This document shows, piece after piece, positions 53,554-64,000 of a stretch of 64,000 nt of DNA (its first letter is position 1; the number at the start of each line of letters is the position of its first letter). The position numbers and the translations under genes were made by a program. Source of the DNA: a virus. A model generated the notes under the pieces. That model saw only the letters and a program-made list of their open reading frames with translations. It searched no databases and was not told the DNA's origin. The stretch lies in IMG/VR virus record IMGVR_UViG_3300009008_000003, one strand, 5' to 3'.

Positions 53554-55269
53554 ATGGATAAAATTGCTAATATAAGAGTATCTGATCGTGCTGGAGAATG
53601 GGCGAAAGATATTCTTGAACATTTTTATACAATGTACCCAGAATTGATGAATGTAGACGCTCGTGTGCTTTTTAAGAAAAAAGAACCTAATAAGGGTTAT
53701 GGCATAGGCGGTCTTGATTTAGGCGCTGTTACAGTGCCTGTTGTTATTAGAAACTTTCATCTTGCTCCGTTGGATGTAGCGGTTTCTCAAGAAGGTAATA
53801 TACTACCTTTTAACCGCCATGTTGTAGTTGCACTAACTAATGATACATCTGCGTTTAAGAGCGCTCCACTATTAAAAGATTCGCAATCGTTCAAATTACT
53901 ATTCGGACGTAATGCCTTATCACAGAGAGAAGATATGATTGATGCTAGTAAGGGTGTAGAAAAGACAGCTTCTGCCAAGAAATATATACAAGACAACTGG
54001 TCTAGTGAGTACAATGTTACAAATCTTATTGAAGATTGGTTCAATAAGCAGGCTGGTATAGTAGAGGCAGATGAGGACGGGGTTAGAGACAAATTACCAA
54101 GAGATGTATGTTTACTGGTAAAAAATGCCTCAGCAGATCACTCCTATAGTGGTTATTTCGGTAGTTCACATTTACATGACGTGGTAGAAGAGCGTGTCAA
54201 TGCTGAACAGTTGCCAGAGGAGTTACGTGATCGTAAGATCATAGTGAAAACTGCAGCTAATGATGAAATCACTAAATATGCTGAAACGGGGGATTTTACC
54301 CTAATCACTACATCTGATATGCGTACACTGGGTATAGATGGAGATGGTAATTATAAAGAATTTCCGTATATAGGCCATAATGTTAATAAAGAAGAGGAAG
54401 AGGCACTAGTTGAGAAATTAGCTGCTGCCCCCGGTTCTGGTGATTATGGCATGTGGTATGTCAACGGGCATTTTACAGAACCTATGACAATATTAAACAT
54501 AGAAACTAGTACAGAACCTGAAATGATGAAGATTGCTACCTTCGGGGGTACTTATAAGAAGAATTATCAGGTTATTCGTCCTATTAAAGATATCGTAGAA
54601 GGCGAAAAACGTGGCGAGTACTACCTACCTACTAGCGCTTCGTGGGTCAAGCTAGCAAACTCTAGCGATGAGCTAGATAAATCTTATATGGGCGTGGCTA
54701 CGCCTAAAATTGTCAAATTAGCGGAAAATAGCTACACATGGAAGGGTCAAGAGCTTAATAAGTATGCAGAAACACGATTAAATGATTCTGGACCTTATAC
54801 AAGTAAGGACACAATGTTGGCTCTTCTTAATATGGGCGCTAGTGAAAATGATATTTTGAAGATAGCGGAGCTTAAAGTGGGGGAAGTTGCTAATGTTAAT
54901 AGTAAATTAGAACTTAAACCTACTATAGAGGAGTTCATAAAAGAAGCTGAACTCGCTGATAAAGAGTTTAAGCCTATTTTCAAAATGGGTGAACTTGTTA
55001 AGATAGCTGCACCTATTAAAGACAAGAATACAGTTGATGCTGTTTTAGGGCTTGGTTATCTTAATGCAAATGTTAATGAAGAAGAATATTTCGAATATAT
55101 ACCTCAATTAGAGGATGTTGCGCAGCGGTTATCAAAAATGCTATTGGATATTCGCCTTGGCGCACTTGATATGGATGAAAAAATAGTATCGGAGGCGTTA
55201 GAAAGCTTATCAGAGCTTATTGTTACGCTAAAACGGTTAAAACAAACGAAAGTTAATAGGAGAAAGTAA
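53554..55269 (+). CDS. KxA-motif-rich protein, putative head scaffold/internal protein
   Basis: 571 aa with 15 K-x-A tripeptides (KIA, KSA, KTA, KQA, KNA, KYA, KLA, KEA). Confidence 0.55.
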   Translation: MDKIANIRVSDRAGEWAKDILEHFYTMYPELMNVDARVLFKKKEPNKGYGIGGLDLGAVTVPVVIRNFHLAPLDVAVSQEGNILPFNRHVVVALTNDTSAFKSAPLLKDSQSFKLLFGRNALSQREDMIDASKGVEKTASAKKYIQDNWSSEYNVTNLIEDWFNKQAGIVEADEDGVRDKLPRDVCLLVKNASADHSYSGYFGSSHLHDVVEERVNAEQLPEELRDRKIIVKTAANDEITKYAETGDFTLITTSDMRTLGIDGDGNYKEFPYIGHNVNKEEEEALVEKLAAAPGSGDYGMWYVNGHFTEPMTILNIETSTEPEMMKIATFGGTYKKNYQVIRPIKDIVEGEKRGEYYLPTSASWVKLANSSDELDKSYMGVATPKIVKLAENSYTWKGQELNKYAETRLNDSGPYTSKDTMLALLNMGASENDILKIAELKVGEVANVNSKLELKPTIEEFIKEAELADKEFKPIFKMGELVKIAAPIKDKNTVDAVLGLGYLNANVNEEEYFEYIPQLEDVAQRLSKMLLDIRLGALDMDEKIVSEALESLSELIVTLKRLKQTKVNRRK

Positions 55270-55862
55270 TGGAAGAAAAAGTTCTGTTCGAAGCCTTCCA
55301 GCGTGGTCTTAATGCAGAGTTAACTAAGGTAGCTGACTATCTAGGCTCTGATTTAGATAAAGAAGTCGCTTTTGAGGCTTTCCAACGTGGATTCAATGAG
55401 GAATTAGAGAAAAATGCTGCTAATATCGGCACGGCTGTTGGTCTTTTAGGCGCTGAGATTAAAGCCGGAGCTAAAGCTGGTATTGAGGCTACAAAGGTTG
55501 TAGCGAGTAAAGCAGTAAATGCTACTAAAGCTGGTGTCACCAAGGCTACTAAGTCTACAGGTGATGCGGTTACTAGCGCTGCTAAGGCTACTAGAGACTC
55601 TGCTGTAAATGCTGCTCATGCTACTGGTGGAGCAACAGTTGCTGCTACTAAGACAGTTGGCGCTGTTCCCGGCAAGGTAAATAGAAAAGTCAGGCAGGTA
55701 GCATACGGAGCTGGTGAGAAAGTAGAGGGTAAGGGCGCTACTCGTCTAGGTCGCTTTATTCAAACCCATCCAGGTGCAGTGGGTTATGGTGTATTAGGCA
55801 CAGGCGCTGCAGGTGTTGGCTATGGTGGCTATGAAGCTGGCAAGCGTATCTTCGGTGACTAA
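55269..55862 (+). CDS. Ala/Lys-rich protein with duplicated FEAFQRG.N.EL.K.A leader and C-terminal Gly-rich helix
   Basis: LFEAFQRGLNAELTKVA and AFEAFQRGFNEELEKNA tandem; TKA-rich middle. Confidence 0.65.
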   Translation: MEEKVLFEAFQRGLNAELTKVADYLGSDLDKEVAFEAFQRGFNEELEKNAANIGTAVGLLGAEIKAGAKAGIEATKVVASKAVNATKAGVTKATKSTGDAVTSAAKATRDSAVNAAHATGGATVAATKTVGAVPGKVNRKVRQVAYGAGEKVEGKGATRLGRFIQTHPGAVGYGVLGTGAAGVGYGGYEAGKRIFGD

Positions 55863-56058
55863 AACTGGGTCTGCAACCTTACTTTATTTTTTAATAAATT
55901 TACCCAAATTCGGGCAAAATATTAGGGGGCCCTCGTTTTGAGGCTATTTCCCACAAATAAAAAAATAATAAAATACCTAAAAGATAATGCACGTTTAGAT
56001 GGAGGCCTTGGTATCAGACGGTGCTAAGGCCTTTATTTTTAATAATTTAACTAAATGA

Positions 56059-56385
56059 GTGATATGCATGGTTAAGACATATTGGGAACTAATAGAGAAG
56101 AATGCCGGAGTGGTAAGTGGTACTAAGCGCTACTTACACCTACTACGGGGTGGGCATGCTAAAACATTAAATAGAGAAATAAATAAAAATTTAATATCCG
56201 GTATGCGCGCGAAAGGTATGGCTGATTTGCGAAGGAAGCAGTTTGTAAGGGGTCTTGCAGCATCTAGTAAAATTAATGCCAGGGCAGCAGAGAAAGTTCG
56301 TGTCAAAGCAGCACGCGGTTTGACAGCTATGGGAATAACTGGCACTAGTACTACACTACTAGCACATAAAAAGCGTAAAAAATAA
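56059..56385 (+). CDS. Leader-tagged basic protein (MVKTYWELIEKNA)
   Basis: Likely start at 56068; array member. Confidence 0.65.
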   Translation: MICMVKTYWELIEKNAGVVSGTKRYLHLLRGGHAKTLNREINKNLISGMRAKGMADLRRKQFVRGLAASSKINARAAEKVRVKAARGLTAMGITGTSTTLLAHKKRKK

Positions 56386-56561
56386 AAAAAAGCATGATTA
56401 AAATAAAAAAATCATTTTGAGAGAAGCCGACGGGGTATATATAAACGGCCCAATACAAAGGGAAAATATAGAGACTCCTTTTTCGAGACAGGGAACCGAG
56501 GCTCTTTTTAAATTTATTTTTTTTATTTTTTTTCACCAATAACACAAGGAAACAAAGTATA

Positions 56562-56747
56562 ATGTTAAAAGAATTAGGATTTCAAAAACGAGCTGCATTG
56601 CCCCTTGTACCATTAGCTATAGGTGCTGCTGGTGCAATAGGTGCGGGAATAGGAGTAAAAAAGTTTCTAAAAAAGAAAAAAGAAAAGAAACTAATGACGA
56701 ATACATCGGATTCACCTAAACCGCGAACAGTTAATGTTAATTTATAA
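56562..56747 (+). CDS. Leader-tagged small protein (MLKELGFQKRA) with one hydrophobic helix
   Basis: 61 aa; array member. Confidence 0.6.
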   Translation: MLKELGFQKRAALPLVPLAIGAAGAIGAGIGVKKFLKKKKEKKLMTNTSDSPKPRTVNVNL

Positions 56748-62952: not shown

Positions 62953-63163
62953 AACAACGCGATAAAAACAAGCAATTCAAGCCTCCTACAATGGATGAGC
63001 TCAAAAAGGCATGGAAACGGAACGGACGCGGGAAAAGAATCAATCACAAGCGTGACAAGCTTCGCCTCAAGCATGAAAAAGAAGAAGCGATAGAATATTA
63101 TAATTTAAAAAATATTTTAAATAAAGACTAAGGTATAAATTAATTTACAAGGGAATTAATTAA

Positions 63164-63430
63164 TTGCACAAACAAGCGTCTCTGCCCAGCTCTCTTAACA
63201 GGTTGTCTTTAAAGCACTTAACAACACACAAGGCTTTAAAGCGCCTTGCTAATATGAACGAATACCAAAGCGCTAGGTTCAGAGCACATTTCAAAGGCAA
63301 AGATGCAGCTACACATATTGCTGCTGCAAGGAATCTTAAACGCAACAACAGTAAAGCAGACCCAACTTACTTCTACAGAGAAGCGGCCAAACTGATCAAT
63401 CAGGGTAAAAAGATAAAAAGGATAACATGA
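63164..63430 (+). CDS. Leader-tagged basic protein (xHKQASLP)
   Basis: TTG start; paralogous to 59088-59534 (KQASLP...HG[RK]xAA). Confidence 0.5.
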   Translation: MHKQASLPSSLNRLSLKHLTTHKALKRLANMNEYQSARFRAHFKGKDAATHIAAARNLKRNNSKADPTYFYREAAKLINQGKKIKRIT

Positions 63431-63699
63431 AACTAACAACACCAAAAACATTTAAAAGGTTTTCTGATCTTTTAAAAGGCGGGGATAAAAAGGTTTTAAA
63501 AGAATCTTATCGCGAAGCTATTAAAAAAGATGTTAGTTCTGAAACTTTGCTTAAAGGTTATAAGGCCAAGAAAGAAGCTAGAACTGTCGCCGCTGCGCGG
63601 GCTATAACGGTCGGAGTTCCCACAACTGCCGCAACTGTTGGTGGAATACATTTATACGACAAGCACCACGAGAAGAAATTACGTGACTTAGGATTTTAA
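63427..63699 (+). CDS. Basic protein ending in LRDLGF
   Basis: 90 aa; paralogous to 56059-56385. Confidence 0.6.
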   Translation: MKLTTPKTFKRFSDLLKGGDKKVLKESYREAIKKDVSSETLLKGYKAKKEARTVAAARAITVGVPTTAATVGGIHLYDKHHEKKLRDLGF

Positions 63700-63702
63700 A
63701 CA

Positions 63703-64000
63703 ATGCCTATACACCCTGTAGCAAGTATGTCAATCGGAGCAGGTCTTGGTCTTGGTTTAACCGGGGTAGGCACAGGTATAAAGTGGTCTACGTATAAGGA
63801 AAAAACAAAAAATCCAACCTTTAAAGACTTTTTTAAGAAAAATAAAGCGCATATCATAGGCTCGGCTGCTATAAATTCTACTCTCGGCGCTAGCCTTTTT
63901 ATACCATCTAGTTCTACCCGATATCGGGCAAATTATAAGTATGAAAGAGCCTATACTAACAACTACAGTAGACCAACAACTTCTTTCAGTGATCACATGA
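63703..64000 (+). CDS. Membrane protein, truncated by the window end
   Basis: Manually translated open frame MPIHPVASMSIGAGLGLGLTGVGTG... with no stop before 64000. Confidence 0.55.
   Translation, partial: MPIHPVASMSIGAGLGLGLTGVGTGIKWSTYKEKTKNPTFKDFFKKNKAHIIGSAAINSTLGASLFIPSSSTRYRANYKYERAYTNNYSRPTTSFSDHM

Follow-up and report, generated by a model that had tools for sequence, protein, structure and literature searches.

The internal proteins of bacteriophage T4, its Alt protein, its scaffold and its capsid protein are all cut by the prohead protease gp21 at the motif L/I-x-E, and a ten-residue capsid-targeting sequence that ends in this motif suffices for head loading (PMC8442874, PMC9958956). 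In SPN3US and phiKZ, paralogous head-internal proteins carry common N-terminal propeptides that are removed by the prohead protease (gp175/gp245), and the first 15 residues of SPN3US gp53 and gp54 are identical (PMC5694885). The subject of this report is a stretch of viral DNA of 64,000 nucleotides (nt), IMG/VR record IMGVR_UViG_3300009008_000003, referred to here at its full length as the window. Between positions 55269 and 64000 it holds 19 open reading frames (ORFs) arranged head to tail on the + strand, many of which begin with one of a few recurrent leaders that end in the motif φ-x-K-x-A (φ, a hydrophobic residue). The array is best read as a hypervariable set of genes for small basic head-internal proteins, similar to the T4 internal proteins with their capsid-targeting sequence but with a different cleavage code, a reading to which we give a probability of about 0.65.

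The T4 proteins IPI, IPII, IPIII and Alt are likewise small and very basic, with unrelated bodies behind a common leader of about ten residues, and the T4 internal-protein locus is likewise variable between relatives. At the end of the T4 leader stands the motif at which capsid and core proteins, too, are cut by the prohead protease, and the motif of the array is common to the capsid, protease and scaffold-like proteins of relatives of the window phage. The wording of the T4 capsid-targeting sequence is like that of one leader of the array, M-x-T-Y-x-E-[LF]-I (T4 sequence from PMC8442874), and the fold of gp21 is that modelled for the protease of the relatives (Z 10.8). The differences are the motif itself, L/I-x-E in T4 but φ-x-K-x-A as the recurrent motif of the array; the many more genes and at least two to three leader families of the array, with lineage-specific leaders in relatives; and the presence of tags internally and near C termini, with modules fused or split at the sites. 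No homology to IPI, IPII, IPIII or Alt was found in Pfam and PHROG scans of six array proteins. The likeness to SPN3US and phiKZ lies in the large size of the phages and in their numerous head-internal proteins, grouped in paralogue families that vary in size; in addition, Salmonella phage Arash, a cultured relative of the window phage, carries its RNA polymerase inside the virion. In SPN3US and phiKZ the cleavage motif is S/A/G-x-E and the proteins are larger, whereas the array has another motif and bodies that are mostly unrelated rather than paralogous; the Pfam and PHROG scans gave no link between the scanned array proteins and the SPN3US/phiKZ families (for example PF12699). Herpesvirus assemblin has the same serine-protease fold as the modelled protease, and its sites are cut after an alanine, with a hydrophobic residue a few positions upstream; it differs in belonging to eukaryotic viruses, in having only the protease and the scaffold as substrates, and in lacking both a lysine at P3 and cargo arrays. 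The Dar proteins of phage P1 are accessory anti-restriction proteins that are loaded into the head, injected with the DNA and act on the host, but they are few and are loaded in a dependency chain; no homology to the array was found, and we know of no array of shared short tags in that system. Against this background of known T4-like internal-protein systems, the new elements are the φ-x-K-x-A code, the many lineage-specific leaders and the shuffling of modules at the sites.

The locus had originally been predicted, from the window alone, to hold about 15 small basic genes with unrelated bodies behind one of two leaders. Its outline was confirmed, with the count raised to 19 ORFs, and every leader N terminus quoted in that prediction is present in its place. 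A six-frame search of the 64 kb shows that both leaders are confined to the array: T-[YF]-W-E-[LI]-I occurs in three peptides, the N termini of genes 56068, 57639 and 58762 (array genes are named here by their first position), and L-x-x-L-G-F in eight, all on the + strand, between 56565 and 63679, in called frames. Copies of the latter motif also lie near gene ends, as had been noted, at 59487 (gene 59088-59534), 60395 (gene 59714-60484) and 63679 (the last residues of gene 63427-63699). The codons of this second, LGF-type leader vary synonymously among copies (TTA/CTT/CTC, GGA/GGC/GGG and TTT/TTC), so the peptide is what is conserved. The bodies are indeed unrelated for the most part: an all-against-all BLASTP comparison of the array proteins gave mostly leader-only matches, the exceptions being the C terminus of 57639 with 58762 and, weakly, 59088 with 63164. 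The predicted basic charge was found in nearly all array ORFs, 17 of the 19 having an isoelectric point (pI) of 9.4 or more, with a maximum of 11.6; the median pI is 10.2 in the array and 6.4 among the ORFs elsewhere in the window (p = 7e-7), and six array ORFs contain Gly/Ala-rich hydrophobic stretches. The description fails for four members of the claimed array: genes 59714, 63427 and 63703 have no N-terminal tag, and ORF 58540-58761 is acidic, Cys-rich and untagged. Pfam and PHROG scans assigned no family to the six array proteins scanned (55269, 56790, 57639, 59714, 60477 and 62329) and gave nothing usable for ten proteins of the region 49984-62952.

The leaders had further been proposed to end in a K-x-A cleavage site. 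Plain K-x-A is not in excess over composition in the array proteins, and the claim was therefore narrowed to the position of the site at the leader ends, which does stand out, and to the hydrophobic residue (P5) that lies two places before the lysine in nearly all leader K-x-A sites listed. The motif φ-x-K-x-A starts within the first 25 residues of 12 of 17 array ORFs and of only 1 of 86 others (Fisher p = 5e-11). It is also dense in the 571-residue protein encoded immediately to the left of the array (14 sites where 1.3 are expected), and homologues of this protein at 68% and 54% identity keep most of the sites. Similarly, a 371-residue protein encoded two genes upstream of the portal gene (6518-7633) has nine sites compared with 0.9 expected and is probably another protease substrate of the head core. 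The two proteins together contain 23 sites against 2.1 expected, while all remaining ORFs of the window contain 16 against 24.9 expected; the reverse pattern, A-x-K, is not enriched in either of the two. The 571-residue protein has no Pfam or PHROG family and no match in a scan of IMG/VR, and the ESM Atlas models of it and of the 271-residue protein of gene 56790 are of low confidence and gave no lead. The fused RNA polymerase of the window has no φ-x-K-x-A site where 4.6 are expected. The polymerase of Arash, the most abundant virion protein of that phage, has three where 3.0 are expected and thus no depletion, and a general avoidance of the motif by the polymerase was dropped.

The source of the window is a large phage without a close cultured relative. 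The portal and polymerase of Arash (181 kb) and of the Vibrio phages D69, D148 and D181 are about 30% identical to those of the window, megablast of positions 50000-64000 against cultured phages gave no match, and neither did tblastn with the 571-residue protein and the 256-residue protein of gene 59714. Alignment of the protease recovered 95 clade relatives in IMG/VR, on contigs of up to 215 kb, and a 189-kb contig is on record for one array protein. The clade is large and almost wholly uncultivated; its phages, of some 170-215 kb, are represented by no fewer than 95 IMG/VR contigs, and Arash is a cultured member. A degenerate LGF-x-K-x-A leader pattern was scanned in IMG/VR and in metagenome contigs; many hits fell by chance inside cellular genes, and true ORF starts were found in phage-like contigs of 33-46% G+C. 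In the 106-kb contig G001, five LGF-tagged genes, together with TFW-type leaders, lie directly upstream of the terminase, protease and capsid genes, the array abutting the terminase gene. In contig G002, a homologue of the 571-residue protein, the LGF-tagged gene/array and the terminase, protease and capsid genes form one block on the same strand.

The motif recurs at fixed places in the head proteins of these relatives. A protease of 480-590 residues is conserved in G001, G002 and Arash (gp222) and matches a PHROG head maturation protease (E 5e-11); in 77 of 78 such proteases φ-x-K-x-A lies 32-41 residues before an invariant NRNGDYF. The site likewise ends 5-12 residues before a conserved F-[VI]-R-x-K-L-R-E in 37 of 39 distinct capsid proteins, including Arash gp226, and scaffold-like neighbours in G001 and Arash have four to nine sites each with fewer than 1.3 expected. 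Across the clade, the 6-kb flanks of the protease gene contain 910 distinct ORFs, of which 245 have an N-terminal site (first 25 residues). The leaders differ by lineage, each recurring on several small basic genes in a row, such as M-K-Y-F-E-K-x-A on five to six genes of contigs L193/L194 and M-x-K-Y-L-E-K-I-A on at least eight genes of contigs L198-L206. By this comparison of sequences, the window array appears to exemplify an arrangement found across the clade.

The protease of the relatives is predicted to adopt the assemblin/T4 gp21 fold. Its AlphaFold2 model, built from 42 sequences (predicted local distance difference test score (pLDDT) 82), is disordered up to the φ-x-K-x-A site and folded after it. 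Among solved structures the model is closest to T4 gp21 (5jbl; Z 10.8, root-mean-square deviation 2.9 over 128 residues), and herpesvirus proteases come next at Z 7-9. Sequence searches against solved structures and Pfam returned nothing, and NCBIfam gave weak hints only. Several prohead protease genes of relatives contain LAGLIDADG inteins, located at a conserved PFD-CSICG motif and giving proteins of 912-977 residues, and inteins are also present in the terminase (L015 11110-13923 and 6463-9129; also L203, L218, L219, L222, L227 and L235). In one subclade a protease of the Trypsin_2 family is encoded among the head genes (L016 15771-16592, − strand; L001 8092-8916; L083 344-1027). In G002, L001 and L083 this trypsin-like protease is encoded beside the head genes; it was weighed as a candidate for the processing enzyme and rejected, since Arash has the code without such a gene; it is found neither in Arash nor in the 106 kb of G001.

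The sites also mark the points at which modules are fused, split or swapped between related phages. In protein P0028 of a relative, an N-terminal LGF leader is followed directly by the module that occupies the middle of window gene 57639, where it stands behind an internal ..E-L-G-F-Q-K-Q-A; the alignment between the two begins at the residue after the alanine. Behind a further K-T-A, P0028 carries a module that over its final 165 residues shares 58% identity with the C-terminal part of 60477. Conversely, the orthologue of 62004 in L033 forms the C-terminal part of a 174-residue fusion, behind an internal LGF-x-K-x-A (53% identity, E 6e-32). Gene 57639 is itself a fusion, with internal junctions at an LGF-x-K-x-A (site residue 87) and a K-T-A (site residue 192), and its third module is a paralogue of gene 58762. 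The C-terminal part of 62329 is 39% identical to an LGF-tagged protein of L083.

The leaderless gene 59714-60484 belongs to the family in which this behaviour can be followed most widely, with 191 representative clusters in a profile search. The conserved start of the body is present in 103 of the 191 clusters, and a K-x-A ends 5-11 residues before the body in 53 of these 103, in 47 of the 53 at an offset of exactly seven or eight residues (47 of 78 upstream K-x-A). A hydrophobic residue occupies P5 in 48 of the 53; 42 of the 53 are short N-terminal leaders that differ widely in wording, and the other 11 are internal junctions of longer proteins. A further 21 members are leaderless and begin exactly where cleavage would leave the N terminus, and in fusion proteins sites are found both before and after the body. 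Additional members have K-x-S or K-x-G at the same junction, which fits the K-T-G leader end of gene 58762. The AlphaFold2 model of the family (pLDDT 88) is all-helical, with long Gly-rich helices; in a fold search its matches were limited to generic helical hairpins, BAR domains and soluble alpha-pore-forming toxins, none of them significant. No function was assigned from these matches, and a membrane-active role would be only a guess.

The expectation that the locus varies among relatives was upheld by G001, G002, L001, Arash and L131, in which the bodies turn over strongly while the tags are kept. No tblastn match (E below 1e-3) to the array bodies of the window was found in G001, G002, L001 or Arash. 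Contig L131 is the array piece of the closest relative, whose flanking protein is 68% identical to the 571-residue protein, and only one of its six genes has a homologue in the window array. By gene layout, the contigs of this closest relative differ even among themselves by the presence or absence of two small genes.

A weak link between tagged proteins and virions is provided by Arash gp217. A leader-tagged protein in L194 is an SNF2 helicase whose orthologue is gp217 (gp217 and the G001 orthologue are 34% identical, E 3e-68), and gp217 is abundant in the virion proteome of Arash determined by mass spectrometry. Arash gp95, gp97 and gp100, annotated as structural, also have N-terminal sites. 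The coverage values of the Arash proteome were set aside as evidence for N-terminal processing, which they cannot reveal, and an LGF near the C terminus of the G001 SNF2 helicase was discounted as a tag, as it aligns with conserved body sequence in orthologues. A LigT/2H phosphoesterase domain (Pfam E 2.4e-5) stands behind a TFW-type leader in G001 (L015 9119-9649). T4 Acb1 is a member of the 2H phosphoesterase family, and the G001 protein may be a packaged anti-defence enzyme. An effector role of the array proteins can be imagined by analogy and from the two tagged enzymes of relatives, the SNF2 helicase and the 2H phosphoesterase, but it is speculative.

Taken as a head-internal system, the array would operate as follows. 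Each precursor would carry an N-terminal tag of 5-25 residues ending in φ-x-K-x-A, the alanine sometimes replaced by serine or glycine, and the site would be recognised by the assemblin-fold prohead protease of the phage, with one code serving the capsid protein, the protease itself and the scaffold-like proteins. By analogy with the T4 capsid-targeting sequence, the tag would bring the precursor to, or hold it in, the core of the assembling prohead. The protease would cut after the alanine, the mature basic protein would stay with the DNA, and genes could be fused, split and shuffled at the sites without change in the mature products. Because those products would not depend on where start and stop codons lie, fluid gene boundaries and internal copies of the tag would follow. 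Cleavage, packaging and any role after injection are what we infer for the array proteins from these comparisons. The original prediction had combined an address label, a K-x-A site and a variable cargo. Its second and third elements find support in the comparisons, in that the leader motif behaves like the prohead-protease site of the clade, that protease has a gp21/assemblin-like model, the bodies are variable and the locus differs between relatives. The first element is less secure: some leaders have only five or six residues, some orthologues have none, and identical tags stand at internal junctions; the tag may for these reasons act chiefly in cleavage or docking and not as an address of its own.

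Several points weigh against this interpretation. The capsid protein and protease genes of the window phage lie outside the window, so that the motif is read in the copies of relatives, and the conserved K-x-A near the N termini of those proteins could be a structural motif instead of a cleavage site. The array bodies have no homologues in Arash. The Arash virion list, with 116 proteins, looks over-inclusive, and the proteome paper reports no cleavage analysis. The occurrence of leaderless orthologues and of leaders of five to six residues implies that a tag is not always needed. Finally, the LGF copies near C termini, which recur in relatives L033 and L131, are unexplained by cleavage; they may be docking motifs or remnants of fusions.

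The main live alternative, which we consider unlikely, is that the array proteins are processed pieces of the core or scaffold, or filler that condenses DNA, either expelled or retained as inert counter-ions, instead of cargo that is addressed or effectors that are injected, with the tag serving as a plain cleavage site. That the motif is densest in scaffold-like proteins, that leaders can shrink to five or six residues or be absent from orthologues, and that tags stand internally as plain junctions all speak for it, as do the low-confidence ESM models of 56790 and of the flanking 571-residue protein, the two that were checked. The array proteins, however, have one or a few sites and not many, like T4 internal proteins; the 59714 family, conserved across 191 clusters, has a confident fold prediction; and in relatives, enzymes, namely the SNF2 helicase and the 2H phosphoesterase, bear the same leaders.

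It is far less probable that the tags are cut by a host enzyme or serve export, through the Prp protease, signal peptidase or a leader system of the kind found with bacteriocins and other ribosomally synthesized and post-translationally modified peptides. Prp trims ribosomal protein L27 and head proteins of the staphylococcal phage 80-alpha, and the pattern M-L-K-..-F-..-A with its basic residues superficially resembles the L27 extension. The array motif differs from the Prp/L27 motif (F-F-A type) in having a lysine at P3. Head proteins of Arash carry the code as well, and the host of that phage presumably has neither an L27 extension nor Prp, and in relatives the motif occurs in the phage's own protease and capsid protein. 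The Gly/Ala-rich hydrophobic segments of several bodies could suggest export, but the leaders do not look like Sec or lipoprotein signal peptides: most lack a hydrophobic core, lysine stands at −3, which does not suit signal peptidase I, and there is no cysteine. No transporter or modification genes were found nearby in Pfam and PHROG scans, and the length of the bodies, 40-280 residues, also speaks against these readings.

Least credible, and already largely refuted by synonymous variation and cross-clade conservation, is an origin of the shared N termini at the DNA level without any role for the peptide, by recent duplication, recombination at junction repeats or selection on translation initiation (A-rich ATG-CTT-AAA-AAA), which would account for the 58-nt repeat and the 27-nt repeat D6 (60451-60477 and 63136-63162, 96% identical) being read in different frames, for two leaders identical over 24 nt and for one broken cassette, but not for the varying leader codons, for the same peptide tags in phages with unrelated DNA of 33-46% G+C, for an offset from K-x-A to body that is fixed in about 50 families at most 50% identical to one another, or for internal copies, which cannot serve translation initiation.

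The features of the locus are collected in Table 1. The 58-nt junction repeat is a trace of cassette duplication or recombination. The broken cassette at 59551-59704 could be a frameshifted or decayed cassette, a programmed shift or an assembly error. ORF 58540-58761, probably not cargo, starts either at a GTG or at a later ATG as called on contig L031.

Table 1. Features of the array and its left neighbour in the window (site residues count from the start of each protein).
Feature	Position	Strand	Remarks
Scaffold/core-like head-assembly protein, 571 aa	53554..55269	+	Rich in φ-x-K-x-A; conserved gene flanking the array on its left
Array gene 1, 197 aa	55269..55862	+	Two tandem leader units of ~28 aa, K-x-A after residues 22 and 50; Ala/Gly/Lys-rich body
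Array gene 2, 105 aa, pI 11.6	56068..56385	+	TYWELIE-type leader, site end at residue 13
Array gene 3, 61 aa	56562..56747	+	LGF-type leader, site end at residue 11; then Gly/Ala-rich hydrophobic segment
Array gene 4, 271 aa, pI 10.6	56790..57605	+	Leader of 13 residues with K-G-A end
Array gene 5, 281 aa, three-module fusion	57639..58484	+	TYWELIE-type leader, site residue 17
Acidic Cys-rich small ORF, no tag	58540..58761	+	pI 5.2; four CxxC-like pairs
Array gene, 103 aa	58762..59073	+	TFWEII-type leader, K-T-G end (small-residue site variant)
Array gene, 148 aa, pI 11.0	59088..59534	+	Minimal six-residue leader; LRDLGF 16 residues before stop
Gene-junction repeat, 58 nt (family D4)	59504..59561	+	90% identical to 61545-61602; other frame in upstream gene
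Broken cassette	59551..59704	+	LGF leader meets a stop after 12 codons; Gly-rich 41-aa ORF 59579-59704 in another frame
Leaderless array gene, 256 aa	59714..60484	+	C-terminal LKKLGF; widespread all-helical family
Array gene, 223 aa	60477..61148	+	LGF leader (site residue 11); internal K-T-A (site residue 63)
Array gene, 145 aa	61148..61585	+	Long LGF leader, site residue 25; same long form in P0028
Array gene, 135 aa, pI 10.7	61591..61998	+	Minimal leader, six residues
Array gene, 117 aa	62004..62357	+	LGF leader; two sites in a row, at residues 13 and 19
Array gene, ~200 aa	62329..62952	+	Likely start ATG 62350, giving five-residue leader M-F-K-Q-A
Basic ORF, 46 aa, status uncertain	62991..63131	+	
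Array gene, 88 aa, TTG start	63164..63430	+	Minimal leader, K-Q-A end; weak paralogue of 59088
Array gene, 90 aa, no N-terminal tag	63427..63699	+	LRDLGF at end
Gly-rich basic ORF	63703..64000	+	Runs off the window

The last ORF is cut by the end of the window, and the array probably continues past 64000. A 25-nt repeat (55901-55925 and 63915-63939, 80% identical) with a short hairpin inside has its first copy in the gap after array gene 1. The sequence GGYATAAG occurs 20 times in the window compared with five expected, mostly 5′ of − strand genes and mainly between 30 and 50 kb. It is absent from the intergenic parts of the array, where its copies fall within genes, and for this reason the array looks like a single long late transcription unit. 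A scan of 49000-64000 for sigma-70 promoters and terminators gave no excess over shuffled sequences. Elsewhere the window encodes the portal (8394-10268), the fused β/β′ RNA polymerase (19057-25161), MoxR/VWA proteins, glycosyltransferases, a collagen-like fibre and a C10 peptidase.

Should the tags prove to be cut and to direct packaging, the full set of capsid-delivered proteins of a poorly known clade would become predictable from sequence, and a prohead protease of the T4/herpesvirus fold would have evolved an Ala-specific site with lysine at P3. Hypervariable internal-protein loci would then be explained by the exchange of modules at protease sites, which leaves the mature products undisturbed. 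A broader proposal, which we hold only tentatively, is that the clade uses φ-x-K-x-A as a distinct code of its capsid protease and as a general loading-and-release label, with a head-internal proteome of interchangeable beads to which the SNF2 helicase and the 2H phosphoesterase would also belong; gene boundaries would then be fluid, and the sequence would reveal which mature proteins are injected. Cultured Arash and the related Vibrio phages make the idea directly testable, and a short portable tag could be a means of bringing foreign proteins into capsids, something already achieved in T4.

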